64,000 nucleotides of DNA from an uncultured Poribacteria bacterium (lineage in GTDB: Bacteria > Poribacteria > WGA-4E > WGA-3G). The translations under genes and the position numbers were made by a program. Shown here piece after piece: positions 46,137 through 64,000 of this stretch (positions are counted from its first letter, which is position 1; every line of letters starts with the position of its first letter). Under the pieces are notes generated by a model. It was not told where the DNA came from. It did no database searches and saw nothing but the letters and a program-made list of their open reading frames with translations. The stretch is from assembly GCA_958296135.2 (NCBI GenBank), contig CATQHZ020000002.1, forward strand, positions 1-64,000, read 5' to 3'.

Positions 46137-47561
46137 TTACCGTTTTAAATAGTCTGGCAAATTATTTGCCGGTGATATTGATCCTGTTATTGAAATATAA
46201 GGAACATAATCGGTTTGTTTAATCACGTAGCGTACAACATCAAGTCCATCATCATGTAACTTAATTGGAATTTCGTCTTGTAGCGATCCGTTATGTTTAT
46301 CGGGATCTTTGTGGACATAACGTTCGATCTCTTCTGTAGTTCTTGTCGGAAAGTTTTTCTCTACTTGAGAGTAATCGGGTTCGTGATCACGAGAATTCTT
46401 GTTAAAAAATAACTGATTTGCTGAAAACCGTTTTTTTGTTAAGTTAATTCCTGGTAGAACTTCTTTATCAGCATTCTTTATTGGAAGCCCCATTTTTGCT
46501 AATGATTTATTAACTTCCGGCTTATGATCTGCGACTACCCATTCTAAGTCCTCACCTTCTGGTATGTATGAAGCGTTTAACTCGAAGATTTCCTCTCGCA
46601 TTTGGTCAACATCGAGTCCGGTCTTATAGATCTCTTTGTATAAGTAGATCTCTGAATAATCTTCTGGACCACAAAAAAGACTGTAAACGAATGGATGACG
46701 CTCACCATAATCGATTCCACCATACCAAATCCAGTCTTGATCTGATTCGAATCTGCGTCTGTCTATTTCTTCTTCTTCTAAATCATGTAATTCTGGAACG
46801 TAGTAGTCACCATAAACAGTGCCTTCTGCTGAACACCATTCTCCTAAATATCCTCTTCGATATTCGATTCCTACCAAGTTATTCTTTAAATCTTCTATTG
46901 TTTGTAATCCCAACGCTGTCCATTTGCCATCGTAAAATAATGTTGGGTTATCACTGTGAGTTACAGTGATCATTTCTAAAAGACCATCTGCTTGAAGACG
47001 CTTTAAAAAATGTTTTCGATAACTTGGATTACATTCACCTAGTAAAAGTCCTCGTTGAATACCATTATCGATCCAGCCACCACGCCGACCATTACATCGA
47101 CGACCTAAGCGTTGCCAAAATTCAAAATCCGCTTGCTCACATTGACTGTAGAAAGCTACATCCCATTCTGTACCTAGCACTTTTCCACTATCGTCCTCGC
47201 CACCGAAAACCATTTTACCACCATTGAAATATTCTAGATGTGTTGGCGTTCGACGACCATTATGTGGATGAACTGGGTTTGCTGATCGATTGTCTAACCC
47301 AAATGGTAAGATTTTATCTGCAAATTGCGGTAATATTGAATTATACACCGTTGTTTTTTCTTTACGCAAGATAATACTTTGTAAACCTGGTATCTTCATG
47401 TGGAGCGCGTGAACGTATGCCATACACGAAAATGTTTTCGCACACTGATATGGCGAATCCAAAACGACTGTTCTGCTCTTTGTCCGAAACATTTGCTTGA
47501 TCTTTTCGCTTTGAACTGGTATAACAGAAGGATGAAACATTGGATACCGAGATTTATTCAT
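46137..47561 (-). CDS. terminase large subunit
   Basis: ILRK, FGGEDD..KVLGTEWD, ECNPS, DNP, GEW..AEG, GIDYG..HP and DDGLDVVRY motifs. Confidence 0.9.
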   Translation of the reverse strand: MNKSRYPMFHPSVIPVQSEKIKQMFRTKSRTVVLDSPYQCAKTFSCMAYVHALHMKIPGLQSIILRKEKTTVYNSILPQFADKILPFGLDNRSANPVHPHNGRRTPTHLEYFNGGKMVFGGEDDSGKVLGTEWDVAFYSQCEQADFEFWQRLGRRCNGRRGGWIDNGIQRGLLLGECNPSYRKHFLKRLQADGLLEMITVTHSDNPTLFYDGKWTALGLQTIEDLKNNLVGIEYRRGYLGEWCSAEGTVYGDYYVPELHDLEEEEIDRRRFESDQDWIWYGGIDYGERHPFVYSLFCGPEDYSEIYLYKEIYKTGLDVDQMREEIFELNASYIPEGEDLEWVVADHKPEVNKSLAKMGLPIKNADKEVLPGINLTKKRFSANQLFFNKNSRDHEPDYSQVEKNFPTRTTEEIERYVHKDPDKHNGSLQDEIPIKLHDDGLDVVRYVIKQTDYVPYISITGSISPANNLPDYLKR

Positions 47562-48359: not shown

Positions 48360-48452
48360 TGACATCTAGATATCCCAATTTCGCTAATTTTTTTGGGCTT
48401 ATTATTTATTGGTCACAAAAAAGAGGTTGTATTTGGGTTTTTGACTCCAAAA

Positions 48453-48730
48453 TCCTTGCGAAGCCCTCAGCCGCACAAGTTGTGCAAGTTCGTTTAAGTC
48501 GTGGTGCAAGTTGCAGCCCTCAGCCGCACAAGTAGGGCAAGTTTTCTAAGTTTTTCCGTATCTCCCCAGCGGCTGGGATATTTTTGTGAGAGGAGCCCAC
48601 AAGCATAAGAAATTATATATTATATATTTTTTAAAAGCTATATATATACTTGCAAACTTGCACAACTTGTGCGGCTGAGGGCTCCAACTTGCTTCGAACT
48701 TGCACAACCTTTGCGCTCGAGGGCTTCGCA
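48453..48730. repeat. iteron-like inverted repeat array around an AT-rich core (origin or pac candidate 2)
   Basis: GCCCTCAGCCGCACAAGT x2 plus CAAGTT repeats, CCCCAGCGGCTGGG, AGCATAAGAAATTATATA core, then inverted ACTTGTGCGGCTGAGGG and AACTTG repeats. Confidence 0.8.
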
Positions 48731-48965
48731 GTGCTTTTTTTCATCAAAATTTCAGAGTTAACTCCAAAATCAACAGGATTTTCATTGGAGTTAACATGAT
48801 TTTGTGAAAATTTTCTCCAAAAATTTGAAAAGTTTTCATACAACGACCTGTTTTTTAACGCCCTTGATTAGACTTTGTGGCTGAGGGTCCCGACAACCTC
48901 TTTAAAAAAACATCCCCCTACAGAAAAGTGTTCCCAAATCGACGATTTTTTCAAGATATCAAGTT

Positions 48966-49814: not shown

Positions 49815-50060
49815 TCAATACGTATGACGTTTCATTGTTCCTTGAATACCTTGAGATTTTCTACGCTTATTTCGGCATTCTTCCCAATGAATCGCCCGTT
49901 GTAAATGATATATTACGCATTCGTTCTCGTAACATGGTAATACCTCATTCAAATATCTAACTCTATCAAGAGTTTCTTGAATTACATCTTCTACTCGAAG
50001 TCCCTTCCGTTCAACTTTATTCCAGTCAGTTAAGTTTTGTTCAGCAAGTTTTTTATTCAT
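49815..50060 (-). CDS. Tad1-like immune-signal sponge protein
   Basis: GLRVEDVIQETLDRVRYLN...PCYENECVIYHLQRAIHW...R..RR..QGIQGT matches the Tad1 C-terminal pattern G...DL....DRL..F.....REN..A.THVEEAL.W..RR...R...V.GT as I recall it. Confidence 0.7.
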   Translation of the reverse strand: MNKKLAEQNLTDWNKVERKGLRVEDVIQETLDRVRYLNEVLPCYENECVIYHLQRAIHWEECRNKRRKSQGIQGTMKRHTY

Positions 50061-50478
50061 GATTCCACTCCAAATCGCCAGCGAACGTTAATCCTAGTTC
50101 TTTAGCCCATGCACGAGCATAGTTGTCTGCTATTTGAAATACGATTTCTTTTAGAGCCTCATTATAATTATCAACATCTTCTTTTGTGACTACTGTTCGG
50201 CCCCAAAGATTGTGACCAATGAAGATCAGCTTCACATGATCTTCCGACACTTTTTCAGCTTCGGAAACATGTCTATTATATTTACGATAGAAATTTTCAT
50301 GCATTCCAACTGTAATCTCGTTCCACGCGTCCTCGAACCCCAAACACCCAATTGAAAATTCCATTGATTTCGGATCTGTCATTTCCATGAACTCGATCCC
50401 GTCCGCCAAAAGTTGGTGAGTATTACTGCTTACCCAATCTTCGTTTATAGTTGGCAGATGTATAAATAAATCTGTCAT
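50053..50478 (-). CDS. hypothetical acidic protein
   Basis: AAGGAG RBS; first gene after class M promoter copy 5. Confidence 0.65.
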   Translation of the reverse strand: MTDLFIHLPTINEDWVSSNTHQLLADGIEFMEMTDPKSMEFSIGCLGFEDAWNEITVGMHENFYRKYNRHVSEAEKVSEDHVKLIFIGHNLWGRTVVTKEDVDNYNEALKEIVFQIADNYARAWAKELGLTFAGDLEWNHE

Positions 50479-50503
50479 TATTTTGCTCCTTTTTGTTCCT
50501 TTA

Positions 50504-50544
50504 TATTATTAAAATATTAAATTTTCAAGGGCATTTAAATCCAA
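50504..50544 (-). promoter_or_regulatory. class M promoter motif, copy 5
   Basis: TATTATTAAAATATTAAATTTTCAAGGGCATTTAAATCCAA; further TTTAAATCCAA at 50584 and 50634. Confidence 0.8.
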
Positions 50545-50961
50545 ATAAATAAATATTTAATATTGAAAATATATTTCTGGTCGTTTAAATCCAAGCGACC
50601 AATATTTTTTATTGAAATGTTTTCAATTGGCGATTTAAATCCAATAAAATGTTTCATTGAAAAAAGTTGAAAAATTTGTTTGCAAAAATTTGGGATCCTG
50701 GTTTATATTATACAAGTAAATGTTTTTCGTCGGATATATCAAGATTGAATTAGATATATTGGATTGATCTCAAAAAGTTGATTTAGGATTTTTACAGGCA
50801 AATTACTAACCGGATTAGGAGTCCCACGTTTTCAAATAGGATTATAACAACATCATCAATGGCAGATGTCTGATCCAACAGCCCATGTTATTGATCTTGA
50901 TTAACATCTTGATTGTAAGGATCATAACCCTGATGGATGTTAGACAATCGATCCCTGTTAA

Positions 50962-50995
50962 CAAAAAATAAAGGACCGGAATCCGCTCCGGCCCT
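50962..50995 (-). terminator. GCGGAT-loop hairpin with U-tract closing the early gene array
   Basis: Minus strand AGGGCCGGA-GCGGAT-TCCGGTCCT-TTATTTTTT. Confidence 0.7.
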
Positions 50996-51027
50996 CTACT
51001 CTGATCGTTATGATCAATCACTCCCTG

Positions 51028-51525
51028 TTAGCAGACTATGGTCACCTCCTGATCTTCGCCGAACAACACCTCCCTGATGATCATGCCAGCCATCTCGATA
51101 TGATAGCCAACAACCTTGTCAGACTCATAATAGCAACAGGGCTTGATGATCCCTAAGAACTGAAGCTGATTGATCGCACAATCCATCGCCTGATAATAAG
51201 TCGGGAGATTCGGATCGACCTTATCATCAAAGTCCTTGATTGTATATCGACATAACCGGTTAAGATCCCGATCATCCCTGTCGGTCGCCTTGATCAACTC
51301 CTCCTCTAGTTCGCGCGGGCTGACCAGATCGGATCCTAATTTAGTCACCGCCTGGACGATATATCCCACAAGATCGGTTGGATTTTTCACATCCCTGATC
51401 CAGTGGGGGAGCTCATCTATCAATGTTGCCGCTTGATCCGCTTTGATGATCGCATTGACGATCCGCTGATCTTCGGTCACAATTATCAACTCGTTGCTCT
51501 TGTGATCAAATATTGGGGTTGTCAT
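51028..51525 (-). CDS. early protein, paralog family A (winged-helix-like C-terminus)
   Basis: AINQLQFLGII...AGMIIREVLFG..QEVTI shared with 51608, 56319, 57904 and 61426. Confidence 0.7.
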   Translation of the reverse strand: MTTPIFDHKSNELIIVTEDQRIVNAIIKADQAATLIDELPHWIRDVKNPTDLVGYIVQAVTKLGSDLVSPRELEEELIKATDRDDRDLNRLCRYTIKDFDDKVDPNLPTYYQAMDCAINQLQFLGIIKPCCYYESDKVVGYHIEMAGMIIREVLFGEDQEVTIVC

Positions 51526-51607
51526 TATATTCTCCTGTCGGACTCTAAATTTTAGGGCTTGATTGGGAGAGGATCAACATCCGCGCTGATCCCCTCCGAC
51601 ATCATGA

Positions 51608-52141
51608 TTAGGCTCTTATTGTGACCTCTTGAGCTGTCCCAAAGGACAACTCCTTGAGGACACGGCCAGCTATCAGGAGCCTGACGCCTGTCGCCTCATA
51701 TCGATAGCGATCATGGGGGACAGGATCGGATAGCTCCTCAAAATCAGTCCTGATCAACTCCTGGATATCAAGCAAGGATAGTCCGTGCAAGACAGCCTGA
51801 TCGATCGGATCATCATAGATCTGAGGTTCCTCATATAGATCCTCAAGATCTTGGGACGCCAACTGGGATAGCAGATCCATTCGACCCTGATAGCGAGCCT
51901 CAAGATCAGCCTTGATCTCATCGACGGTGACAAGATCCTGATCGCTTTGGAGGACAACGCTTGTTAGAACGTCATGGAACAGCTCCGGATTGATCATCGC
52001 AGCCACCGTTGTGGGATCTGCAACATCCTCAATGTTTTTGACATCAAACTCATCAACGCTGTTGACGGTGACGAGTCTATTGCTGTTGGGAGGGCTGATC
52101 CTCATTTGAAAGAGAGGATCAACATTGATTTGATAAGACAT
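51608..52141 (-). CDS. early protein, family A (start revised to MSYQINV)
   Basis: CAGGAG RBS before the ATG at 52141; AGRVLKELSFG..QEVTI; very acidic. Confidence 0.75.
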   Translation of the reverse strand: MSYQINVDPLFQMRISPPNSNRLVTVNSVDEFDVKNIEDVADPTTVAAMINPELFHDVLTSVVLQSDQDLVTVDEIKADLEARYQGRMDLLSQLASQDLEDLYEEPQIYDDPIDQAVLHGLSLLDIQELIRTDFEELSDPVPHDRYRYEATGVRLLIAGRVLKELSFGTAQEVTIRA

Positions 52142-52385
52142 TATATACTCCTGCTTGATTGGATCTTTATGATCCTTTATTGATTTGTTTGATCTATCAT
52201 ATGTTGGATCAATTATTTGATCCGTCAGGAGAGCGACTCCTTGCCGCCCCCCTCCTATATATAATATAGGCGATCGACCGTTGATTTCAGATCGAACATC
52301 CAATTTTTTTTGGAGCGGACATCCGATCCAGCTGATTGTGATGAGAGGACCGGATCCGCCCGATCCCCTCAACAGCTTGATGATC

Positions 52386-52721
52386 TTAAGCAAGGACATG
52401 ATCGATCCAATTATGAACCCAGCGGACATATTGACGCCGCCAGACCTCAATACGCAATCCGTAATGGTTGCCAACGGTGGGATCCTGATCATATATGCGA
52501 CGCTGGGAGTTGATCGCAGACTCAATATCAGCTCTGAGTTTGCCCATAAACAACCAGACCTCAAGATCCGATCTGAACTTGATCACATATCGCAATCTGA
52601 ACAGATCTTTTTTTAGCGACCGGCAGCCGCTTTTGATCCACTGGTTATCAGACTCTATCATCTCGGTGTGGAGCTGCTCGATCTGCTCCTCGATCGGTTT
52701 GACAACATTTTTGATCGACAT
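52386..52721 (-). CDS. early protein, family B (start revised to MSIKNVV)
   Basis: GAGGA RBS; KDLFRLRYVIKF resembles KDLSRIQYHVHV of the upstream gene. Confidence 0.65.
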   Translation of the reverse strand: MSIKNVVKPIEEQIEQLHTEMIESDNQWIKSGCRSLKKDLFRLRYVIKFRSDLEVWLFMGKLRADIESAINSQRRIYDQDPTVGNHYGLRIEVWRRQYVRWVHNWIDHVLA

Positions 52722-52837
52722 TATATAATCCTCTATTGGCTCAATTATTATTGAACCGTCTTGATTTGTGGGCAAGGGACCGGATCCGCTCCGATCCCAT
52801 CAGCCCGATTGATTTTTATTGAACAGCTTGTCTCAAT

Positions 52838-53512
52838 CTATAGATCCTCTTGTCCTGTAAGGACATCTTTGAGTCGACTTAGATCAGCAATCCGTTGGCG
52901 TTCTAGCTTCTCATCCGTCTGATCGCACTCCTTGATCCAATTGATCCGTTGATCGATAACAACGACTGCTCGATCTGCGTTCCGGTTCATATTGATGTCG
53001 GCGTACAATCTGCTTAGATCGTCAATCCGCGTCTGGACCGCCCAATCATCATAGCTGTCGGGATCTATCGCATCAAGATCCTGGATCAGCCCCTCATATC
53101 GAGCGTGGATTGCTCCAATATATTTATCGGTGAACATTTTTTTGATCTCCTCGTTGATTGTGACGACGGGACCGGATCCGCCCGATCCATCATCATCTGT
53201 TAGCAAGATCGATCTCGCCTTGTTAAGATTATCGATCCGCTCCTGTTTGTGCTCATCATCAGGGACCAGTCGCCTGATCGTCCTCAACAGTTGATCGACT
53301 CGCTCAACCGTCCTTGTCGGATTATCATCGACATGGACATGATATTGGATCCGCGACAGATCCTTGATTTGATCCCTTAGGATCCGGCATGTGAACAACG
53401 ACGGGACCGATGTTTGCTCGATCCCATCAAGATCGGTGTTGAGATCATCGATCATGACCTCAATTGCCTTATATGCTTGTCGGACATTTGGGCTAACAAA
53501 TTTGATTGTCAA
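52838..53512 (-). CDS. early protein, family B, two domains fused in frame (probable TTG start at 53512; internal RBS and ATG for MFTDKY)
   Basis: GAGGA-TAAAAAA-TTG start; linker DGSGGSGP is encoded by a GCGGAT hairpin; GAGGAG-N9-ATG inside the ORF. Confidence 0.65.
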   Translation of the reverse strand: MTIKFVSPNVRQAYKAIEVMIDDLNTDLDGIEQTSVPSLFTCRILRDQIKDLSRIQYHVHVDDNPTRTVERVDQLLRTIRRLVPDDEHKQERIDNLNKARSILLTDDDGSGGSGPVVTINEEIKKMFTDKYIGAIHARYEGLIQDLDAIDPDSYDDWAVQTRIDDLSRLYADINMNRNADRAVVVIDQRINWIKECDQTDEKLERQRIADLSRLKDVLTGQEDL

Positions 53513-53779
53513 TTTTTTATCCTCATTGATTGGATCTTTATGATCCTTTATTGATTGATCTGATCTATCATATGTTGGATCAATTATTTGATCCGTCTGG
53601 GAGCCGCTCATTGCCGCCCCCCCTCCTATATATAATATAGGCGATCGGAGCCTGATATCAGATCAGACATCCAAAAAAGTGGGATCAATTATTTGATCCA
53701 TCATTTGGGTTCAACATCTATCAGGCTGATTGTGACGAGAGGACCGGATCCGCCCGATCCCCTCAACAGCTTGATGATC

Positions 53780-54439
53780 TTAGGCATCGACCTGATAATG
53801 ATCTTTTAGGATCTGCTTGAGGCGGACTATATGATCCTCGCTGTCCTTAATTTGCTGCCGGATCATGTCCTCAACGCTCAATCCTGTTGTTTTAGCGACG
53901 ACATCATCGATTGTTGCTGTCACAACCTCTGCTGTTGCCGGTTTGACATCCTGAGCCGCGATTGGTTCAGGGACATCAACTCTGATCGCTTCGACAATCG
54001 CATGGATTGGAGCCTTGACATCAACTCTATGATCGCGAGCTTTGATCATGATGTTAAGGACCTCGACACAACGTGGAGTGCAATATCTCTCGCTGGCTTG
54101 ATCGAGCCCGCCATCAATATAGCTCCAAAGTCCGGTGACCGGATCTTTGTCGATCCAACCCCGTCCCATGCCCTTGTCACAACTCCAGATCCTTTTGACC
54201 ATCCGGAGCGGGCTGTTGGGATAGCCACCGGTCTGATTGACGACATGATCATGAACCGGATCGGTTAGCTGCTGCATATCATGGAGCAGATCGCGGAGAG
54301 CAATCGGGCTCCCGTCGCTCGGCATGGACGCCAACATTGCGATATGGACTGTCATCCGCTCTGTTGTTCTGCCGAGGATCAGCAGATCGCTATTATTGAG
54401 GACCGGAGACGCATTGGGTTCAAACATTTGATTGTTCAA
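53780..54439 (-). CDS. early protein, family C (winged-helix-like domain plus C-terminal coiled coil)
   Basis: GRGWID...GLWS and TTGLSVEDMIRQQI..S.D.I.RL.QILK.HYQ shared with 54655. Confidence 0.7.
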   Translation of the reverse strand: MNNQMFEPNASPVLNNSDLLILGRTTERMTVHIAMLASMPSDGSPIALRDLLHDMQQLTDPVHDHVVNQTGGYPNSPLRMVKRIWSCDKGMGRGWIDKDPVTGLWSYIDGGLDQASERYCTPRCVEVLNIMIKARDHRVDVKAPIHAIVEAIRVDVPEPIAAQDVKPATAEVVTATIDDVVAKTTGLSVEDMIRQQIKDSEDHIVRLKQILKDHYQVDA

Positions 54440-54654
54440 TTTATTTCTCCTGTTGGATCTTATGATCCGTCTTGATTGAGTTGATCAATCATATTATTTT
54501 GGGGAGCCAACCCATCGTCGGCTCCTATATATAATATAACGCATTTGGCCTTGATATCAGATCAGACATCCAAAAAATTTTGGCTTTAGACATCCAACCA
54601 ATTTGATGTTGGGAGGGGACCGGCATCCGCGCTGATCCCCTCCGGCTGTTGATT

Positions 54655-55230
54655 TTAAGCAACATCCTGATAATGATTTTTTAAGATCTGCTCCAGTCGA
54701 TCAATATAATCATGCGAGCTTTGGATCTGCTGCCTGATTATAGACTCTAGACTCAGATCTGTTGTCGCCTTGACATCAGGCTTGACCTCTTTGTCCACAA
54801 CAATCGGATCAATGACCTCATCCTGCTCTTGATCGCTATCATTTTGATCCTTGACTTTGTTAAGGACATCCATAAATTGCTCCAGATCCACACCATGATA
54901 GCCCAAATTGCTTTCAACATAGCGTCGGATCTCAACAATGGACGCATCGGTCGCAATCCAGCGGCCAGATTGACATTTGATCCACTGTTTTGCGGACGAC
55001 CACACGGATGTGATCCCAGCGAACTGGTTCTTAGATTTATATTGAGTTTCAAGGAGGTGATTGATCGGGATCAACAGCTCCTGGATAGCAGTCCATATAT
55101 CAGATCTGAACGCTTGATTATCATTATTGATCATGATGTCCAAAGCAACAGCCTGCATCGCGGGACCGATCTTGGTGTGATTTAAGATCATCACATCGTC
55201 GGTTGTCAAAACTCTTTCAGGTGCGAACAT
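54655..55230 (-). CDS. early protein, family C
   Basis: TTDLSLESIIRQQIQSSHDYIDRLEQILKNHYQ; WI...SGRWIAT wing-like segment. Confidence 0.7.
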   Translation of the reverse strand: MFAPERVLTTDDVMILNHTKIGPAMQAVALDIMINNDNQAFRSDIWTAIQELLIPINHLLETQYKSKNQFAGITSVWSSAKQWIKCQSGRWIATDASIVEIRRYVESNLGYHGVDLEQFMDVLNKVKDQNDSDQEQDEVIDPIVVDKEVKPDVKATTDLSLESIIRQQIQSSHDYIDRLEQILKNHYQDVA

Positions 55231-55321
55231 TTTATATACTCCATTAGCGGATAACTTACGCTATCCTATTTGATTGCGATGGGAGGACCGGCATCCGCGC
55301 CAGCCCTCCATCCGGTTAGCA

Positions 55322-55693
55322 TTAAATATCAATTTCGCCTGTCAATATTTCAACAACATAGCGCAGATCCGCCTCAAGATCCGGATATTGACCGTCATCC
55401 GTCCAGCGGCTATAGACGACGCTGATCAGCCTGATTGTCTTGACGCGATCCTTATAGACTGTCAAATGACTCAAGACGCGGCTCAGGACCTCAACCCGAT
55501 CGGTTAGCCGATCATAGACGCCCATCTGTTTGACCGTCATATCATCGATGTTGTCCGTCATGGGTTCCAGCTCGTCCTCGATCTGTTCCAATTGAGTGAT
55601 CATCGCACCGATGGCGAAGTCGACTCTAACGACAGGATCTTGTTGATCGATCAGATCCAAGATCGGCGTTTGATCTATCTTTGCGGTTGTCAT
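55322..55693 (-). CDS. early protein, family B
   Basis: DQT.ILD...Q.D...RVD.AI...LSRVL...YKD..KT...QYPDL..D..YV..ILTG shared with 55887. Confidence 0.75.
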   Translation of the reverse strand: MTTAKIDQTPILDLIDQQDPVVRVDFAIGAMITQLEQIEDELEPMTDNIDDMTVKQMGVYDRLTDRVEVLSRVLSHLTVYKDRVKTIRLISVVYSRWTDDGQYPDLEADLRYVVEILTGEIDI

Positions 55694-55886
55694 TTTTATT
55701 TATCCCCTTGTTGAGTTGATCCAAACAATTATTGGGAGCCGCTCATTGCCGCCCCCTCCTATATATAATATAACGCATTTGGCCTTGTTATCAGATCAGA
55801 CATCCAAAAAATTTTGGATCCAGACATCCGACAGCCTGATCGGTTGGGAGAGGACCGGCATCCGCGCCGATCCCCTCAACTGATTA

Positions 55887-56252
55887 TTAAATAATTTCAA
55901 AATTGCCTGTCAATATATCTCTGACATAATTGATGTCGAACACCAGATCCGGATATTGATCCTCCCAAAATCCGTAGGTTGTATCAATCATCTTGACGGT
56001 TTTATCAGGATCCTTATAGATCCTAATATAATTCAAGACTCGACTCAACATCTCAATCAGAGCTGTTTGAGCGTCTAGCGACCGTTGTAATCCTAGAGTC
56101 ATATCAGGATGCTTGTCGACAAACACCTCCAGATCGTTCTCTCTTTCCTCTAATGTTGGCTCTAACGTTCTGATGGCGAGATCGACTCTAAATTCCGCAT
56201 CTGTTTGCTCAAGCCGATCCAATATTGTTGTTTGATCTAATCTGACTGTCAT
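55887..56252 (-). CDS. early protein, family B
   Basis: Tandem paralog of 55322-55693. Confidence 0.75.
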   Translation of the reverse strand: MTVRLDQTTILDRLEQTDAEFRVDLAIRTLEPTLEERENDLEVFVDKHPDMTLGLQRSLDAQTALIEMLSRVLNYIRIYKDPDKTVKMIDTTYGFWEDQYPDLVFDINYVRDILTGNFEII

Positions 56253-56318
56253 TTTTTATTTATCCTTATTGATTGTGGACAAGGGACCGGATCCGCTCCG
56301 ATCCCTATCCGGTTATTA

Positions 56319-56846
56319 TTAAGCATCCACGCCACGGTTGGCTCTAACGGTCGCCATATGATCGCTCCCAAACGCCAACTCCTTGAGGACTCTGCCCACA
56401 AGAGTCAGCTTATATTGGGCTTGATCAAGTTCGCAAGTCGGATCAACCTCATTGATTAGATTTATATCAACAAGCTGCTCCAGAGTGGATCCAATCGACT
56501 CCTCGATAACTCGCTCCATCATTGGGATGTCAAAAATATCGACCACCCGATCTAAGCTGTCAATCAGAGCCTCCTGATCGTCAAGATCAAGCCGTCCAAA
56601 CCGAGCCTCGACATCCGCGTCGATCTCGTCACGGCTAACAGGATCCTGATCGCTTTGGGCAATCGATCCCAGAACGATCTCATAAAGATCCTCTTGATTG
56701 CGAAGGGACTCAACACTCATGGGAGTGCAGACATCCTCAATATCCTCGATGTCGCTGACATCCAGATCTGTGACCGTAATATATCGACCTTGATCTGCGA
56801 TGACGACTGTCCTTGTCTCATTTTTGCGATCAAATTTGATTGCCAT
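56319..56846 (-). CDS. early protein, family A (start revised to MAIKFD)
   Basis: IEDV..P...QSDQD.V..DEI.AD.EAR and GRVLKELAFG shared with 51608; highly acidic. Confidence 0.75.
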   Translation of the reverse strand: MAIKFDRKNETRTVVIADQGRYITVTDLDVSDIEDIEDVCTPMSVESLRNQEDLYEIVLGSIAQSDQDPVSRDEIDADVEARFGRLDLDDQEALIDSLDRVVDIFDIPMMERVIEESIGSTLEQLVDINLINEVDPTCELDQAQYKLTLVGRVLKELAFGSDHMATVRANRGVDA

Positions 56847-57062
56847 TATATACTCCATCTTGATTTGTTTGATCCAATCATCTCAATTTGGGAGCCAACC
56901 CATCGTCGGCTCCTATATATAATATAACGCATTTGGCCCTGTTATCAGATCAGACATCCAAAAAAGTGGGATCAATTATTTGATCCATCATTTGGGTTCT
57001 GACATCCGACAGCCTGATTGTCTTGGAGAGGACCGGATCCGCCCGATCCCCTCCGATCATTG

Positions 57063-57581
57063 TTATTCAGATGCATACTTTGATATGATCTGCTCCAACT
57101 GCGTAAAGAGTTGATCAATCCTCTTTTTAGATTTCTCCATAGGACTGCCAGTACTGTCAATAACATCAACGGTTGATAGATCCTCTACTTCTTTTGTGAC
57201 AATTTCTTCAACAACATCGTTGTTATTATATCCATAATCGATGTTATCAAAGAACATCAACCCAAGATCGAAATCCGCTTCAATCTTAGCCTGTTCGATT
57301 GCTCCATCATTGAATGATAGCATGCCGTTAATACCATCGGTTTGACGATCGAGCCAACCCCTGCCGTTCCCATTATCATATCCATAGAACTGAGCAAGCG
57401 ATCCGATCCGATCGATCATACGACCAGTCAACGTGTTGTCGACTATCAACAGCTCCAGATTTGAATCTAAAACCGACTCGATTTCTCTCATCAATTCGCA
57501 CTTGCGGCGAACGCCATCCCGCTCTAGGATAGCGATCCATAACCACTTGGCGGCGTCTCTTTCTCTAACACGGATTGTCAT
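57063..57581 (-). CDS. early protein, distant family C member
   Basis: GNGRGWLDR...GMLSF.DG versus GMGRGWIDK...GLWSY.DG; C-terminal ..LEQII.KY. Confidence 0.65.
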   Translation of the reverse strand: MTIRVRERDAAKWLWIAILERDGVRRKCELMREIESVLDSNLELLIVDNTLTGRMIDRIGSLAQFYGYDNGNGRGWLDRQTDGINGMLSFNDGAIEQAKIEADFDLGLMFFDNIDYGYNNNDVVEEIVTKEVEDLSTVDVIDSTGSPMEKSKKRIDQLFTQLEQIISKYASE

Positions 57582-57727
57582 TTTTTATTTATCCTCTTGT
57601 TGCGTTGATCCAATCATCTCAATTTGGGAACCAACCCATCGTCGGCTCCTATATATAATATAACGCATTTGGCCCTGTTATCAGATCGGACAACCAAAAA
57701 ATTTTGGTTCCGACATCCATCAGGACC

Positions 57728-57826
57728 TCAGACCTCATAACCGAGCAGATAAAGAAATATGCTCACAATGATAATGAAAGTCAAATAGATCCCGATATTC
57801 ATTAACAATCTTTTATATGTGTCCAT
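57728..57826 (-). CDS. 32-aa single-TM peptide (not in ORF track)
   Basis: MDTYKRLLMNIGIYLTFIIIVSIFLYLLGYEV, preceded by AAAGGT. Confidence 0.5.
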   Translation of the reverse strand: MDTYKRLLMNIGIYLTFIIIVSIFLYLLGYEV

Positions 57827-57903
57827 AAAATCAACCTTTGATATGTCTCCATATGAACAAGAAAGGAGAGCTAGCATCCGCGCCAGCCCTCCTAACATCA
57901 ATC

Positions 57904-58332
57904 CTAGTTGTCAAACAGCAAATCCAATATGATGTGGCCAACCTTTGTCGGCTTGACTCCTTGTTTATTACAACGATGGATGACTCCCATAAGTATCATA
58001 TCATGGACGACATCATAAAACGCTCGATCGAACGCGCTTCTCCTTCGAACCTTGATATCTTGATCATCATCAGGCTGATATGGTTCAAACGATCTGGCGG
58101 TATAATGCTTTAGATCAGATATATGGATCCAATCAAGAGGTCCAAGTTGACTCAACTCCTCACATAGATGGCGTCGGAGCCTCAGATCCTTGAAATCCTT
58201 AAGGACCTCCACGTTGCATAAATATTGCAAATCATTGAACTGATCATCCGTCAATCCGCTGGCGGTGACCGTTTTGACATTATCATTGATTGTGATGGTT
58301 ATCGCTACGCTATGTTCAAATTGGACATCCAT
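57904..58332 (-). CDS. early protein, distant family A member (start revised to MDVQFE)
   Basis: GGAGGT RBS; MILMGVI...PTKVGHIILDLLFD. Confidence 0.6.
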   Translation of the reverse strand: MDVQFEHSVAITITINDNVKTVTASGLTDDQFNDLQYLCNVEVLKDFKDLRLRRHLCEELSQLGPLDWIHISDLKHYTARSFEPYQPDDDQDIKVRRRSAFDRAFYDVVHDMILMGVIHRCNKQGVKPTKVGHIILDLLFDN

Positions 58333-58333
58333 G

Positions 58334-58522
58334 CTATTGAACCTCCGATCCATCAAAGCTGGCTTGAAAGCGGATCAAAACCAGCTTGAGTTGTTCTTCA
58401 AAAACATCCTGCTCGGCCTCTATCATATCAGACCAATGATCATGCTCCGGAACCCAGTCCTCAGGGCTTACATCAAGCTCCTGATTAGTCTCCACGTTAT
58501 CGGTTAACAATGCGGCTTTCAT
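58334..58522 (-). CDS. small acidic protein
   Basis: AAGGAG RBS; D/E-rich. Confidence 0.6.
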   Translation of the reverse strand: MKAALLTDNVETNQELDVSPEDWVPEHDHWSDMIEAEQDVFEEQLKLVLIRFQASFDGSEVQ

Positions 58523-58536
58523 ATTGTTCTCCTTGC

Positions 58537-58662
58537 CTATCTATTTATGTTGGATCTAAAAATCTGAGCAAAGACTCCAACTCCAATTACCATGATTTTG
58601 AACCCAACAGGAGCCTCTTGAAAGAGAAAGATTGCGATGGCGGCTGCTAAAGCTACAAACAT
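58537..58662 (-). CDS. 41-aa hydrophobic peptide (not in ORF track)
   Basis: GGAGGA RBS; MFVALAAAIAIFLFQEAPVGFKIMVIGVGVFAQIFRSNINR. Confidence 0.55.
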   Translation of the reverse strand: MFVALAAAIAIFLFQEAPVGFKIMVIGVGVFAQIFRSNINR

Positions 58663-58744
58663 TGATTGATCCTCCAAAAAGACAGGTGGGGACCAAAGCC
58701 CCCACCTTGATTATGAGACATCCGCGTCTCATTAATGTTTGCAA

Positions 58745-59377
58745 CTAAGAGACCTGTTCTGCAACAACAGCCTTGACTCGTCCACGCCCATTCCGCTGGA
58801 CGCCAGACTCTTTCAAGTGAGCATTGATCGTCGCGGAGTTGATCCCTTTAAGCTCACCAATGGCGGATCCGCTCATTCCCTTTTCGGTGTGCAGATGACG
58901 CCATTCAGCCTTGTCATCATCGCTATGCTTCCGACGGTTGTTGCTCTTAGTCGGCAACAGCTTGACCGCATCCTCCCTCAACTTATCGAGTCCAGGAACA
59001 TCTGTCCCTCGCTCCTGAGCAAGGACACTCTTAACGATGTTGTCTTTGACGATCAGCCCCTTGAACTTGCCGTGGATCTTGAACGGGATAAGCTTAAGAT
59101 CCATGTTGTCGTTGACAAATTTTTCGTGGATGAACTTAACGACATCCGCTGCCAGCTCGACCTTGCGTCCACGAGCCTTCGGTTTGAGCAAGACAGCTGC
59201 CGACTCGGCGTTGAGCGGAGCAATCCATGTTTGCTTGTCCTCTTTCAACTTGAGGACCTTATTAAGTTCCGCCTGAACGTTGGCGGGGCTATCAGTCTCG
59301 GTGTTGAGTTCAATCGATCCGGCGGCAACGGTTCCGGCATCCGTCTGTTTGTAAAGATCAAATTTATATGCGGACAT
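58745..59377 (-). CDS. early protein, family D, C-terminal HTH (start revised to MSAYKF)
   Basis: AAGGAG RBS; SDDDKAEWRHLH..GMSG.AIG...GINSATINAHLK HTH. Confidence 0.75.
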   Translation of the reverse strand: MSAYKFDLYKQTDAGTVAAGSIELNTETDSPANVQAELNKVLKLKEDKQTWIAPLNAESAAVLLKPKARGRKVELAADVVKFIHEKFVNDNMDLKLIPFKIHGKFKGLIVKDNIVKSVLAQERGTDVPGLDKLREDAVKLLPTKSNNRRKHSDDDKAEWRHLHTEKGMSGSAIGELKGINSATINAHLKESGVQRNGRGRVKAVVAEQVS

Positions 59378-59597
59378 TATATAATCTCCTTGACGGCCTG
59401 ACACAATCAAGCCATAAATTAAAATTACAATCAATTTTTATAGGAGCCAACCCATCGTCGGCTCCTATATATAATATAGCCGACTCTTTGTTGTTATCAG
59501 ATCGGACAACCGATAAATTTTCGCTTTGGACAACCAACCGACCTTGGAGAGCTGACATCCGCGCCAGCTCTCCAATAATCGACATCCTGTCCTGATC

Positions 59598-60248
59598 TTA
59601 ATAATTATCAAGATCGCACTCCATCCATGCTTTGGGATTGAGCCTGCAAACTTGATTATATTTCGCATAAACAGCTTTGAGGAGTCCAACAACACCAATA
59701 ACGGTTTGCGGATCAACATTATGTTTTTGTGCGACCGGTTCAACCCATGCGGTATCGCCTTTTGCAGTCCGGAACCAAGAGTCCGGCGTCTGGTGAGCAA
59801 GGAACGACCGCCAGATATAATGGACCATAAAATCAATCAGCGGATATTCGACATAAACCCGATTGACATTTGCGATCCTGAACGGATGACTCATTTCGCC
59901 GCCGGCAGCCATGACTTGATCCAGATCAGGATCAGCCCACAACTCGCCCAGAAAGCCTTCAACATCGACCATTGGGATATCGATTACAATCCCGTTGGCC
60001 TCATTAATGACTTCAAGTTCGCAGAACTTAACGCTGACATCCATAGGATCGATCCCATAATCATCAACGATTTCGCCAAAGCCATCAAAGACTCCATTGA
60101 ACTCCATCCGGTTATCGGGCAACGCCAACCGACGGGGGAACCCAACCATAACCGAGAGCTTGTCGCTTGTCGCTTCAAAGACCTCGATTTTGGGAGTCAA
60201 TCTATAAGGAGGGACGATATCAACACCTTCAATCAAATTGCTTAACAT
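59598..60248 (-). CDS. hypothetical early protein (start revised to MLSNLI)
   Basis: TAGGAG RBS downstream of a class E promoter. Confidence 0.7.
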   Translation of the reverse strand: MLSNLIEGVDIVPPYRLTPKIEVFEATSDKLSVMVGFPRRLALPDNRMEFNGVFDGFGEIVDDYGIDPMDVSVKFCELEVINEANGIVIDIPMVDVEGFLGELWADPDLDQVMAAGGEMSHPFRIANVNRVYVEYPLIDFMVHYIWRSFLAHQTPDSWFRTAKGDTAWVEPVAQKHNVDPQTVIGVVGLLKAVYAKYNQVCRLNPKAWMECDLDNY

Positions 60249-60431
60249 TATATTGTCTCCTAAATTTACAATCATCCATAATTGGGAGCCAACCCATCGT
60301 CGGCTCCATATATATAATATAACGCATTTGGCCTTGTTATCAGATCGGACAACCAAAAAATTTTGGCTCCGACATCCAACCGGTGGGGACGAGCCGACAT
60401 CCGCGCCAGCTCGTCCTTTATTGTCATCCGG

Positions 60432-61058
60432 TTATGCATTTGTGACAACAGCCTTGACTCGTCCACGCCCATTCCGCTGGACGCCAGACTCTTTCAAGTG
60501 AGCATTGATCGTCGCGGAGTTGATTCCAAGCTCCTTACCGATCCTGAAGCCACTCCAACCGTCTTCGGTGTGCATGCGACGCCATTCAGCCTTGTCATCA
60601 TCGCTATACTTCCGACGATTGTTGCTCTGAGCCGGCAACAGCTTGACCGCTTGCTCCCTCAACTCATCGATGCCAGCAACATCCGTTCCACGTTCCTGAG
60701 CAAGGACACTCTTAACGATGTTGTCCTTAACCAACAGGCCCTCGAACTTATTATGAACCTTAAAGGGGATTACTTTAAGATCCACATTGTCGTTGACAAA
60801 TTTTTCGTGGATGAACTTAACGACATCCGGTTCCAGCTCGACTTTGCGTCCACCGACCTTCGGTTTGAGCAAAACTGCTGCTGTCTCGACGTTGAGTGCA
60901 GCAACATGATACTTTTTGTTCTTGTTCAGCTCGATCATATCATTAACAGCCGCCTGAACGATGGCGGGGCTATGAGTCTCGGTGCTAAGATCAACAGATC
61001 CGGCTGCGACCACTCCATCATCGTTGCGCTCATAAAGATCATATTTGACGGTTAACAT
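60432..61058 (-). CDS. early protein, family D (close paralog of 58745-59377)
   Basis: Long near-identical stretches, e.g. DVVKFIHEKFVNDN, VKDNIVKSVLAQERGTDV, GINSATINAHLKESGVQRNGRGRVKAVV. Confidence 0.75.
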   Translation of the reverse strand: MLTVKYDLYERNDDGVVAAGSVDLSTETHSPAIVQAAVNDMIELNKNKKYHVAALNVETAAVLLKPKVGGRKVELEPDVVKFIHEKFVNDNVDLKVIPFKVHNKFEGLLVKDNIVKSVLAQERGTDVAGIDELREQAVKLLPAQSNNRRKYSDDDKAEWRRMHTEDGWSGFRIGKELGINSATINAHLKESGVQRNGRGRVKAVVTNA

Positions 61059-61231
61059 TTTAAATGTCTCCTTGACGACTTGACGCATCAAGCCATAAAT
61101 TAAAATTACAATCAATTTTTATAGGAGCCAACCCATCGTCGGCTCCTATATATAATATAGCCGACTCTTTGTTGTTATCAGATCGGACAACCGATAAATT
61201 TTCGCCCAAGACAACCAACCGACTGTGCGGT

Positions 61232-61321
61232 TTATTTTTTATCGCTGTTGCCAAGTACTACTATCCATATTGTTATTATATTCGCCATTACAGCGATTAA
61301 CATAAGATCTATGTTATCCAT
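61232..61321 (-). CDS. 29-aa single-TM peptide (not in ORF track)
   Basis: GGGAGGG RBS; MDNIDLMLIAVMANIITIWIVVLGNSDKK. Confidence 0.5.
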   Translation of the reverse strand: MDNIDLMLIAVMANIITIWIVVLGNSDKK

Positions 61322-61425
61322 TTGATCATCCCTCCCTGATTGTGACTAATGGGACTGGATCCGCCCAACCCCATCAGCCCGTTCGCTCCATAAGATCCGA
61401 TCTAATGGATCAGATCTGATACGAT

Positions 61426-62058
61426 CTAATAGATATCTGTGATACCTTTAAGATCGAATACAATTGCCATCAGGACTCGTCCCGCCTTTGTGACAGAGAC
61501 TGCTCTTAGTTCTGTGTCATCCTGAACGCGGAGTCCATCAAAGAGCTGTTCCATGATAAACTGATCCATAAGGCTCCAGAACTGATATCCGACCACGTCT
61601 GGCATATGATCAATCTCGTCTGGACTCATTTGACCATCATCAAGGATGGCTTCCGCAGCCAATCCCCTCAGATTGTGTTGATCATCCTCATCATGACTCC
61701 AAACCAACTGGTTCAAGATATCTTGAGGGGTGACCACAATATTTTGATCAAATTCAACCGAGGATAGCAGAGCCTCTTCAAACTCAGACTCCCAAACTCC
61801 ATCGGGGTTGTCATCGATCATGCGTTTCATAGCAGCGACCGATATGTTAACGATCCGAGCTGCGTCCAAGACCTCATGATTGAAGCTGTTAACACGCCAC
61901 CGATCGGTTTTGGCAACATCTTCAACAAGATAATCTAAATATGTCCTTTCAACGGGATTGACATTGTGAACAACAACGGTTTTGATCGATCCATCATTGT
62001 TCTCGATTTTGATTTCAACACCCTGTCGCTCTTTGATCGACACATTTTTGATCGACAT
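61426..62058 (-). CDS. early protein, distant family A member (start revised to MSIKNVS)
   Basis: GAGGAG RBS; C-terminal VTKAGRVLMAIVFD; acidic. Confidence 0.65.
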   Translation of the reverse strand: MSIKNVSIKERQGVEIKIENNDGSIKTVVVHNVNPVERTYLDYLVEDVAKTDRWRVNSFNHEVLDAARIVNISVAAMKRMIDDNPDGVWESEFEEALLSSVEFDQNIVVTPQDILNQLVWSHDEDDQHNLRGLAAEAILDDGQMSPDEIDHMPDVVGYQFWSLMDQFIMEQLFDGLRVQDDTELRAVSVTKAGRVLMAIVFDLKGITDIY

Positions 62059-62250
62059 TTTATATCTCCTCTTAATTGTCACAATCAATCAATTATTTGG
62101 GAGCCAACCCATCGTCGGCTCCATATATATAATATAGCCGACTCTTTGTTGTTATCAGATCAGACAACCGATAAATTTTCGCTTTGGACAACCAACCGAC
62201 CGTGAAGGGCTGACATCCGCGTCGGCCCTCCAATTTAGATCAAGATCTTG

Positions 62251-62661
62251 TTAATCCAATTTGTTTATGATATATTCAAGATCATCTTTTGTTATATTGT
62301 CTTTTCCAGATTTCTCCACGCCATCCAATCTGTTTTCAATATAATAGATCAACTCAGAACGAACATCCATCAGAGTCTCATAAAGCTTATCTTTAGCCTC
62401 GTTAAGCTTCTCCATAACAACGGCTTCCTCAAGCTCATACCACTCGATTGCGTCTGCCAACGTCGGCAGTTCCCAGACATCTGTTCTAGTGATATCGCAT
62501 ACAATCTCAGCCGCTTGTTTTGGACCATAATCAGCGTCCTGAGCCAACGGCGATTCAGGCTCCGCAAGAACCTCAATTGCTTGATGTTCCGCAACGATTT
62601 CATTATACTCTTGTTCAATCAACGCAACGTTGTATACTTCCTTATGAACTTGGCTTATCAT
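62251..62661 (-). CDS. acidic helical early protein (start revised to MISQVH)
   Basis: GGAGGAG RBS; start overlaps the upstream stop (TAATG). Confidence 0.65.
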   Translation of the reverse strand: MISQVHKEVYNVALIEQEYNEIVAEHQAIEVLAEPESPLAQDADYGPKQAAEIVCDITRTDVWELPTLADAIEWYELEEAVVMEKLNEAKDKLYETLMDVRSELIYYIENRLDGVEKSGKDNITKDDLEYIINKLD

Positions 62662-63056
62662 TATACTCCTCCCAAAAAGATGGTTGCCAACCAATCGACA
62701 ACTTTGATTGTGACATATGCTATTGTCGCCAAACCAATTACGGCTAGGCAGCCAGAACAACCATCATTATCATCATCGTCGTCGTCATCATTATTGTCAA
62801 CTTTTACTTTCAATTTGACGGTTGTATTTGTTCTAAGCACTTTGAGTGTGGTGACAAACGCCGCCTCGATAGCTTCAACATCATCAGGATCATGATCATC
62901 ATAGACTTCCTCAAAGATGTCCATAAAATCAGATCCAATATTTTCATAAACATCAGTTTGATCATCCGCGATCACGAACCTGAGTTCATAAGCTAATTCC
63001 TTTGGATCTACTCTATCGTCACCATTTAGATATGCGAACAAATTATACTTGATCAT
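62661..63056 (-). CDS. acidic early protein with poly-Asp linker and C-terminal TM helix
   Basis: GGAG RBS before MIKYNL; DNNDDDDDDDND then a hydrophobic tail. Confidence 0.65.
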   Translation of the reverse strand: MIKYNLFAYLNGDDRVDPKELAYELRFVIADDQTDVYENIGSDFMDIFEEVYDDHDPDDVEAIEAAFVTTLKVLRTNTTVKLKVKVDNNDDDDDDDNDGCSGCLAVIGLATIAYVTIKVVDWLATIFLGGV

Positions 63057-63189
63057 TTTATGGTCTCCAATAACATTAAATTTACAATCATTTTTTATAG
63101 GAACCAACCCAGCGTTGGCTCCTATATATAATATAGCCGACTCTTTGCTGTTATCAGATCAGACAACCGATAAATTTTTCGCTTGGCGA

Positions 63190-63540
63190 TCAATCCGACC
63201 GATTTGTTTTGACATCTGGGTTAAGTTCGATCATATGATTTACCCAGTTTACAAGTTCATCAATATCGGTTTTGGGTTCATATAAACTTTCGCTGATCTC
63301 CATATATGTCCATATGAATTTCTCCATAAGGTTACCCTGCGGATTTGGTCTTATGTTCTTTAATGTCCACAAATATAACCGGTATGGCATCCATTTAATC
63401 ATATGGCGAAACCGGTTACCAAACCGTGGTTCTTCAGACCCTTTCAACAAATTGCGGGAATCATTAAAAACTTTCCACTCTTCGATATCGATCAACGCTG
63501 CTCCATAATCTTCTTCAAGACTGTCTTTTAATTCAATCAT
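63190..63540 (-). CDS. hypothetical protein
   Basis: AAGGAG RBS. Confidence 0.6.
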   Translation of the reverse strand: MIELKDSLEEDYGAALIDIEEWKVFNDSRNLLKGSEEPRFGNRFRHMIKWMPYRLYLWTLKNIRPNPQGNLMEKFIWTYMEISESLYEPKTDIDELVNWVNHMIELNPDVKTNRSD

Positions 63541-63551
63541 GATAGCTCCTT

Positions 63552-63998: not shown

Positions 63999-64000
63999 AA

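Follow-up and report, generated by a model that had tools for sequence, protein, structure and literature searches.

The window analysed here is the first 64 kb (positions 1 to 64,000) of contig CATQHZ020000002.1, one of the four contigs of assembly GCA_958296135.2 from an uncultured Poribacteria bacterium. To judge from its genes, this contig of 143,886 bp (36.8% G+C; hereafter C2) is the genome of a tailed phage: it codes for a large terminase, a portal protein, a capsid protein, a head protease and a 1718-aa tape-measure protein, together with an 1880-aa collagen-repeat fibre, a ribonucleotide reductase, DnaK and a RecJ-like nuclease, and in a rough gene call the minus strand carries nearly all of its 178 open reading frames (ORFs). 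An array of small ORFan genes occupies this strand above 50.7 kb, and the packaging and structural genes lie on its lower-coordinate side, where they are read after it (large terminase subunit gene, 46137-47561, minus strand). In the array end that adjoins these genes, a core segment (50700-57000, 45-49% G+C) contains 3.2 GTA/TAC, 9.8 GAA/TTC and 31 GATC per kb, and this bias relaxes over a graded zone (57001-64000) which extends beyond the window to about 66-70 kb. The word bias calls for selection that acts on double-stranded DNA and varies with position in the array.

Exact counting of the 2230 bp between 53007 and 55236 gave no GTA, no TAC, six GAA (all GAAC) and eleven TTC (six of them GTTC), so that 12 of the 17 GAA/TTC are GAAC/GTTC; 71 GATC were found in the same stretch. 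The initial annotation, made by eye, had put the GTA/TAC at zero, the GAA/TTC at about 17 and the GAAC/GTTC at about 12, and these figures are all correct. In 1000 dinucleotide-preserving shuffles per stretch, 53007-55236 contained on average 24.7 GTA/TAC (minimum 11) and 94.1 GAA/TTC (minimum 74). For the whole core, 20 GTA/TAC were observed against a shuffle mean of 84.6 (minimum 62) and 62 GAA/TTC against 272.7 (minimum 236). The expectation of roughly 70 GTA/TAC given by the annotation for the 2.2 kb is in keeping with the base composition (about 75) and with the density elsewhere in the genome (about 60), but falls to 25 when dinucleotides are taken into account. The stretch 51601-52140, also described as devoid of GTA/TAC, does contain none but is not significant alone (0 against 5.1, the shuffle minimum being 0 as well). 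In the rest of the genome the two word pairs reach 26.9 and 46.7 per kb, respectively.

Codon-level controls were carried out on ten core ORFs (4737 nt), with 500 shuffles of each kind (synonymous, recoding, codon order). These ORFs contain 13 GTA/TAC, compared with 46.8 after within-gene synonymous shuffling and 122.9 after recoding with the codon usage found elsewhere in the genome; the corresponding numbers for GAA/TTC are 51, 94.8 and 171.9, and the observed counts lie below the minimum of all 500 shuffles. In 15 genes taken as controls from other parts of the genome, no depletion was detected (GTA/TAC, 252 against 266; GAA/TTC, 465 against 444). The depletion is present on both strands and in all three frames, and it concerns also the intergenic DNA, where 1422 nt hold 7 GTA/TAC and 10 GAA/TTC. 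The share of TAC among the Tyr codons is 0.06 in the core and 0.12 elsewhere, although C-ending codons generally rise. The synonymous shuffles, the recoding and the intergenic counts thus rule out codon bias, and the proposal that the avoidance acts at the DNA level, on both strands and in all frames, is confirmed. A more general origin in chance, codon bias or the amino-acid composition of a few paralogous proteins could appeal to the paralogy of some cassettes and to the Asp-rich nature of the proteins. The counts nevertheless fall outside all 500 codon-level and all 1000 dinucleotide shuffles (the latter for 50700-57000 and 53007-55236, the GTA/TAC of 51601-52140 being the exception), and intergenic DNA is equally biased while control genes are not. 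This explanation is refuted and we give it practically no weight.

When the 32 trinucleotide pairs were compared with a first-order Markov model, the only strong outliers in the core were GAA/TTC (observed/expected ratio, O/E, 0.23) and GTA/TAC (0.24); the next-lowest pair stands at 0.53, and in the rest of the genome the two pairs are at 1.05-1.08. Many other AT-rich words are rarer than in the rest of the genome because the segment has 45-49% G+C. The avoided unit can be written G-W-A/T-W-C. The related G-W-T/A-W-C words (GAT, GTT) are over-represented in the core, and GAA is purged while GAT, GAC and GAG increase. None of the 16 palindromic 4-mers lies below an O/E of 0.38, GATC being at 1.33. 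Three of the 20 GTA/TAC that remain between 50.7 and 57 kb (52146, 55237 and 56851) are situated in the spacer between ribosome-binding site and start codon, GGAGTATATAATG, in agreement with an early remark that exceptions fall in such spacers. The same source had held that GAAC/GTTC is kept as a word modified by the host. This is not borne out: its density drops to 5.6 per kb from 9.7 per kb elsewhere in the genome, a factor of 0.57, and it is merely spared relative to other GAA contexts (35 seen against 14.5 expected under a second-order Markov model).

The opposite trend was found for GATC. The core contains 197 sites, i.e. 31 per kb or one per 32 bp, compared with 6.4 per kb elsewhere on the contig (4.9-fold), and the density stays at 26-38 per kb across 51-57 kb. 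The ten core ORFs hold 152 sites, compared with 103.9 after synonymous shuffling, 60.5 after recoding and 60.7 after codon-order shuffling; this number exceeds the maximum of all 500 codon-level shuffles, and the GATC counts of 50700-57000 and 53007-55236 exceed those of all 1000 dinucleotide shuffles. Another 41 sites are found in the 1422 nt of intergenic DNA. The bases flanking GATC are unspecific, and the phasing of the sites revealed no 10-11-bp periodicity and no clustering at promoters, only the period 3 of coding DNA. A phased protein-binding array was considered for these sites and was abandoned as an idea in view of the absence of helical phasing. The G+C content of the segment is 45-49% against 36% elsewhere, with a jump from 34% at 50.7 kb. 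The GATC load is heavy enough to have altered the protein sequences themselves: Asp makes up 11.4% of the residues of the array proteins against 6.4% elsewhere, and it is followed by L, P, H, Q or R, which permits GAT-C, in 85 of 178 cases compared with 616 of 2392 elsewhere. The three homologues of the 219-aa array protein described below (47-93% identity) are also rich in Asp and poor in Phe. Outside the segment, the phage genome does not avoid GATC (O/E 1.24) but does avoid GGCC (0.42), GTAC (0.51), CGCG (0.55) and GCGC (0.57). The description of GATC as a word that is kept therefore understates a roughly 5-fold enrichment, and the enzymes in view are two Dam-family methyltransferases of the phage itself, not necessarily those of the host as first supposed. 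A look for Chi-like oriented words gave two with strand asymmetry, AATCAA in a ratio of 26:0 and GATCAA in a ratio of 39:18, sited in the repeated leaders and gene starts.

The relaxation of the bias toward 64 kb that had been noticed by eye is real and goes on to about 66-70 kb. The gradient spans 15 cassettes between 50.7 and 69.8 kb (|rho| 0.76-0.92), along which GATC drops from 31-39 to 9 per kb (Spearman -0.88), GTA/TAC climbs from 0-5 to 26 per kb (Spearman +0.83) and GAAD climbs from 1.5-8 to 45 per kb (Spearman +0.88). The strongest bias is found at the array end adjoining the packaging genes, where the border at 50.7 kb is abrupt; the DNA between 49.0 and 50.5 kb is ordinary, with 27 and 14 GTA/TAC per kb. 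Homologous leader sequences differ between copies in the predicted direction: the distal copies contain TGATTGGATCAA, with GGATC, and five of the six inner copies (59466-63123) contain TGATTGTAA, with GTAA. At 80.4 and 83.9 kb, where cassettes carry the same promoter, the GTA and GAA counts are ordinary; the bias therefore tracks position and not promoter class.

Nine array ORFans, all on the minus strand, lie in the core: 51028-51525 (165 aa, pI 4.5), 51608-52141 (177 aa, pI 4.2), 52386-52721 (111 aa), 52838-53512 (224 aa, with a TTG start behind GAGGA), 53780-54439 (219 aa), 54655-55230 (191 aa), 55322-55693 (123 aa), 55887-56252 (121 aa) and 56319-56858 (179 aa, pI 4.05). Ten more small ORFans on the same strand fall within 57063-63540, namely 57063-57581, 57728-57901, 57904-58356, 58556-58744, 58745-59434, 59598-60356, 60432-61115, 61426-62088, 62251-62760 and 63190-63540. 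Eight of the ten core ORFs code for proteins with a pI below 5.5, and 58764-59542 and 60445-61223 form a paralogous cassette pair of 84% identity. Twenty array ORFs gave no match above cut-offs in Pfam, and ten of them, compared with PHROGs, gave a single weak match to an unannotated family (E 4e-4). Plus-strand antisense frames (58739-59401, 59652-60245, 60363-61055 and 62248-62895) mirror minus-strand genes in 58739-62895 and are probably a by-product of the rarity of TTA/CTA on the coding strand. TTG starts were called for 8 of 11 ORFs in 57063-64000 against 20 of 138 elsewhere, in a longest-ORF call with unrefined starts.

The cassettes are preceded by a promoter-like unit, designated class 2, which reads on the coding strand GGWTGTCYGATCTGATAAC, 13 nt, TATATTATATATAGGAG and is followed by a leader hairpin in most array copies. 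Fifteen copies are present, thirteen between 52.26 and 66.46 kb and the others at 80.4 and 83.9 kb, and each precedes one or two small ORFs. The window contains eleven of them on the minus strand, the first at 52251-52306 and the ten others within 53622-63173 (cores at 53627, 54526, 55760, 56914, 57650, 59466, 60309, 61147, 62124 and 63123); beyond the window the units lie at contig positions 64666, 66456, 80388 and 83872. In 14 of the 15 promoters the upstream box GTCYGATCTGATAAC holds an invariant GATC. The second type, class 1, is a 45-nt sigma-70-like promoter (TTGGATTTAAA, 5 nt, TTGAAA, 17 nt, TATAAW) with about 16 copies genome-wide, upstream of DNA-metabolism genes; copies lie at 7250, 11395, 14861, 18718 and 50533 in the window and at 73655, 79255, 85483, 93692, 100992, 108511, 111217, 113540, 115101 and 116035 on the contig. 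The head of the array carries a gene for a sigma-70-family factor with regions 2, 3 and 4 (C2:66558-67454, minus strand), two weak helix-turn-helix proteins and a QueD-like enzyme, and the predicted sigma factor may read the class-2 promoters. A search for a T7-like RNA polymerase (PF00940) gave no match but was uninformative, as the control search matched in no genome.

The left border of the biased segment (50499-50645, minus strand) consists of one class-1 promoter (TATAAA) and three TTGGATTTAAA boxes at 50533, 50583 and 50633, with 50-bp spacing; the promoter serves the gene 50053-50478. Loose contig ends at 50489-50499 had first been taken as strain variants or as the end of the molecule, but at least one of them is explained by the repeated 45-nt class-1 promoter, the loose sequence being the copy at 79.26 kb. 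The cassettes are separated by a GC-rich palindromic repeat, GAGAGGACCGGATCCGCCCGATCCCCTC (52343-52370, further copies at 53165, 53737, 56280, 57026 and 61348), and a related palindrome family occurs at 51562, 52767, 54608, 55276 and 55843. A non-coding element at 48409-48959, which combines CCCTCAGCCGCACAAGTT iterons in direct and inverted orientation with a hairpin and an AT-rich centre, has an inverted, 80% identical copy of 550 bp at contig 69818-70368, and the pair brackets 49.0-69.8 kb. These elements could serve as an origin or a packaging site, or delimit a module that is invertible or mobile. In all four runs of one sample, short-read contigs covered 52.6-56.8 kb at a word depth 0.34-0.65 times that of 46-48.4 kb (a weak measure), and this depth is negatively correlated with GATC density and with G+C; the drop may come from heterogeneity among strains in a module that evolves fast, or from a bias due to modified DNA. 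At the far end of the contig, two giant ORFs of 4987 and 2257 aa (C2:125876-140839 and 119091-125864), the larger one with internal repeats of about 880 bp that are 73-87% identical, probably encode fibres or adhesins.

Close relatives of this phage were looked for in several collections. For 51-57 kb, megablast gave no match among 50,697 phage records; in phage records the terminase reached at most 28% identity and the capsid protein matched nothing. In IMG/VR, the terminase found nothing, the terminase alignment found one locus at 24% identity and the class-2 promoter pattern had no match. The single match of this pattern in JGI metagenomes lies on an unrelated contig of 9-27% G+C without phage similarity and was taken as chance. 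The terminase alignment gave 280 pattern matches in GTDB genomes, none of which was confirmed, and the 159 genomes of the order to which the co-binned chromosome belongs yielded only terminase-like genes of at most 33% identity. Ten of the 34 terminase matches in ENA assemblies are 78-99% identical. For the 219-aa protein (53780-54439), just three homologues (93, 56 and 47% identity) were found among 5.8 billion proteins, and no usable match was found in the ESM Atlas. With identities of 47-93% against 78-99% for the closest terminases, the array proteins diverge fast.

These data bear on the possibility that the segment is of mosaic origin, i.e. acquired from a phage lineage with another genome-wide composition (higher in G+C and GATC, low in GTA and GAA) and now slowly converging on that of its present genome, in which case the bias would say nothing about position. 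The G+C jump from 34% to 45-49% at 50.7 kb, the inverted 550-bp repeats that bracket the region, the fast divergence of the array proteins and the high variability reported for early regions of phages (PMC12455610) are compatible with such an event. However, the bias is graded over 15 cassettes and does not form a block, genes elsewhere in the genome have the same promoters as the cassettes, nothing alike was found in the 50,697 phage records, and the donor too would need a reason for 31 GATC per kb, a density to be compared with a maximum of 16 in any 1-kb window of the co-binned 5-Mb chromosome. A mosaic origin is in our opinion unlikely.

The methyltransferases that could act on GATC are two PF02086 (D12-class, Dam-family) proteins encoded by C2 (86.7 and 79.5 bits), whose nearest solved chains are 7m6b and DpnM 2dpm; by sequence comparison both are distant from characterised Dam enzymes. 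One of the genes lies directly behind a class-2 promoter (80.4 kb) and the other behind a class-1 promoter. T4 Dam is an example of phage self-methylation by a Dam-family enzyme, and the likeness consists in the D12-class adenine methyltransferases; here there are two distant copies, with a putative specificity for GATC. In the literature search, no phage was found reported to concentrate GATC in one region. The phage also encodes FolE (E 2.5e-75), QueC (E 1.1e-72), a QueD-like PTPS protein (E 2.2e-31) and, in a 235-aa frame, a radical-SAM domain (E 3.4e-13), the protein of which we infer to be QueE. The set (QueD-like, FolE, QueC and radical-SAM, at C2:69046-69795, 96711-97238, 99042-99683 and 105807-106061) suggests a preQ0/7-deazaguanine pathway. 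This gene set, whose radical-SAM member has the size of QueE, is a feature shared with the 7-deazaguanine phages CAjan, iggy and Campylobacter Firehammervirus (PMC10484667). According to that source, short motifs (GA; GA and GGC) are where 7-deazaguanine is put in, and the modification gives protection from restriction and from Cas9 in vitro. The difference is that no DpdA/TGT relative was found on C2, PF01702 matching only the chromosome and an iterated search with three chromosomal TGT-like proteins finding nothing in 263 open frames of C2, and that the modification is here a predicted one; phages with fully substituted DNA and no identified DpdA have been reported (PMC10484667). GA density alone fails to explain the word pattern, as GAA is purged while the other GAN words rise.

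The presence of GATC in the promoters raises the question of an epigenetic timer, by which the fully methylated incoming array would be transcribed and its hemi- or unmethylated copies silenced after replication, or the reverse, so that the takeover genes would be confined to the infecting genome. The invariant GATC in the upstream box GTCYGATCTGATAAC and the position of one methyltransferase gene behind a class-2 promoter are in agreement with this idea. On the other hand, GATC is spread evenly through coding DNA, the purge of G-W-A receives no explanation, and SeqA sequestration is not known outside the Dam clade. We give the timer a small chance.

The 5.01-Mb chromosome (C1; 54.4% G+C) was placed in the same bin as the phage contig, with an estimated completeness of 94.7% and contamination of 3.6%. 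The two remaining contigs (17 and 15 kb, 67% and 60% G+C, ordinary GATC frequency) are unlike both C1 and C2, and the bin is thus heterogeneous. On the chromosome, GATC is much rarer than expected (1.31 per kb, O/E 0.24), as is GTAC (O/E 0.35); GTA/TAC and GAA/TTC occur at 16 and 39 per kb. It carries genes for a Dam-family type II-like methyltransferase and type I specificity subunits, as well as three CRISPR arrays, which have 38, 20 and 72 repeats and are situated near 3.64, 3.82 and 4.40 Mb, respectively. A dndC-dndD-dndE cluster was detected at 3049865-3053684, with DndC at 569, DndD at 540 and DndE at 84 bits, each above its cut-off; five other proteins neighbouring the locus matched no Dnd or Pbe restriction model, one of them matching mad2. 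The cluster lends the Dnd idea of the initial annotation some circumstantial support, but nothing ties the phage contig to this chromosome. Of the Dnd consensus words, GATC is enriched 4.9-fold in the core, and GAAC/GTTC is spared only in relation to GAAD.

Another view is that GAA/TTC, and perhaps GTA/TAC, are protospacer-adjacent motifs (PAMs) of CRISPR systems common in the host population, the purge then blocking both interference with the first-entering DNA and spacer uptake from it. Type I-C and I-B CRISPR systems use a TTC PAM, and the loss of three-base words on both strands is what PAM avoidance would produce. The sparing of GTTC/GAAC is not predicted by a TTC PAM, we know of no system with a TAC/GTA PAM, none of the 127 chromosomal spacers matches the phage (longest match 19 nt with 2 mismatches), and the GATC enrichment has no place in this scheme. 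Cas8c (PF09709) had no match in the chromosome either, in a search that is uninformative because its control matched in no genome. The type I-C PAM named in the first description of the region accounts neither for the loss of GTA/TAC nor for the sparing of GTTC, and the probability of PAM avoidance is low.

Known cases of site avoidance were compared with the array. Type II site avoidance resembles it in that short words are under-represented at the DNA level, and such avoidance is seen outside the array for GGCC, GTAC, CGCG and GCGC; the purged words of the array are instead non-palindromic, of 3 bp and regional, and the palindrome GATC is enriched. The experimental precedent for selection on first-injected DNA to which the earlier reading had appealed was found in PMC12455610 and PMC10644984. 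T5-like phages are reported to resist restriction, CRISPR and Ssp systems if their first-step region is without sites (PMC10644984). The likeness to this first-step region (Tequintavirus) concerns a block of about 8-10% of the genome with small genes of unknown function, the required absence, in T5, of defence sites from the block though they are tolerated elsewhere (compare the scarcity of GTA/TAC and GAA/TTC in the array), and bordering non-coding stretches rich in direct and inverted repeats (PMC10644984). Unlike that of T5, the array is not within a terminal direct repeat in the self-comparison of C2, no relatives of A1, A2 or dmp were seen in the Pfam and PHROGs searches, and there is no protein kinship, the terminase being at most 28% identical to any phage record. 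Moreover, trinucleotides and not specific sites are depleted here, and a 5-fold GATC enrichment is not among the T5 features described in the part of PMC10644984 available to us. In Autographiviridae (T7; Murciavirus with the Mme2I type I system), selection likewise acts on the first-injected segment, which bears variable anti-defence genes, and only motifs of the leading region matter against the defence (PMC12455610). There, point mutation or deletion does away with a single bipartite motif of 13 bp (PMC12455610), whereas in the array two trinucleotides are removed wholesale and in a graded manner with a change of protein composition. No paper was found whose title or abstract describes a regional trinucleotide purge or a GATC-rich phage region.

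The T5 comparison also suggests that the array could be immune to a weapon of the phage. A T5-like early nuclease that needs G-W-A would destroy the host DNA, and the word would have to be missing from the only phage DNA then inside the cell, or from the DNA that encodes the nuclease. A trinucleotide, too short for a classical restriction site, suits a shredding nuclease or nickase; the co-binned chromosome contains GTA/TAC and GAA/TTC at the densities given above; the first-step genes of T5 destroy host DNA and how the phage spares its own is stated as unclear (PMC10644984); and the operon upstream of the array contains a weak match to the BstXI endonuclease family (C2:68445-68837, minus strand; E 8.5e-4, below cut-off). 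In the same Pfam and PHROGs searches no nuclease was found among the 20 array ORFs, the enrichment of GATC and the sparing of GAAC are left unexplained, and a two-step entry of the DNA has to be assumed. Such self-immunity is unlikely.

Selection that depends on position along a DNA molecule has as its best-documented cause the exposure of the first-entering DNA to nucleases at a time when the phage has not yet produced its counter-measures. We tentatively propose that the array is a host-takeover module, probably the first DNA to enter the cell, which has been purged of a short defence word and loaded with GATC that the phage itself can methylate. From about 66.5 to 50.7 kb, thirteen near-identical promoter-leader units would each drive one or two small, mostly acidic proteins without known family, as expected for a takeover or early module. 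The biased end would be the DNA that enters first, or stays exposed longest, before protective phage functions exist, and G-W-A would be the word required by an agent in the cell that targets DNA. The Dam-family methyltransferases of the phage would act on GATC, so that the packaged array would arrive densely pre-methylated, and this methylation could shield it or let it pass as marked self DNA, for instance before Dnd immunity. According to PMC6435447, GATC in methylated form can take the place of the phosphorothioate mark against DndFGH. If packaging started at the biased end of the array and ran into the terminase genes, as it does in lambda, this end would be last packaged and first ejected.

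In a more specific form of this proposal, the array would be an armoured leading DNA, saturated with GATC and pre-marked so as to count as self for an immunity that senses mark density, such as Dnd; G-W-A would then be the word of an undescribed agent, either a host defence or the phage's own shredder of host DNA. This form is doubtful, though it deserves some weight.

Several observations count against the takeover proposal. Self-comparison of C2 detected no terminal repeat and no second copy of the biased segment; no long frame crosses the junction between the end and the start of the contig (longest 84 aa), and short-read contigs, as used for the four runs, cannot reveal molecule ends. A packaging cut in the non-coding element at 48.1-49.0 kb would make ordinary DNA (49.0-50.5 kb) the first 2 kb to enter. 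The class-2 promoters are unlike sigma-70 promoters and a sigma gene stands at the head of the array, which could thus be of a middle class, and the canonical sigma-70-like class-1 promoters serve DNA-metabolism genes instead. Both methyltransferases are under the cut-off of the Dam-subfamily model TIGR00571 (49.6 and 62.2 bits against 114.85). We know of no defence that reads G-W-A. Finally, the 0 of 127 spacers, the G+C gap of 18 points between phage contig and chromosome (36.8% against 54.4%) and the two foreign contigs make the chromosome a candidate host only.

Site avoidance in leading DNA is already known, and the regional trinucleotide purge combined with GATC loading is a variant of it. 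Experimental proof of selection on first-injected phage DNA is recent and concerns single restriction motifs only; the imprint is far stronger here, with two trinucleotides nearly erased, GATC raised five-fold, a gradient over 15 kb and reshaped proteins. The adenine methyltransferases and the 7-deazaguanine pathway make this phage a candidate for layered DNA modification. If the takeover proposal is true, it would offer a purely computational route to the leading or takeover modules of uncultured phages and to the words that defences read in them, and it would provide two targets open to testing, one being G-W-A as the word aimed at and the other the protection conferred by GATC density. If the armoured form were true as well, the array would reveal a new principle of counter-defence together with the specificity of an unknown nuclease.

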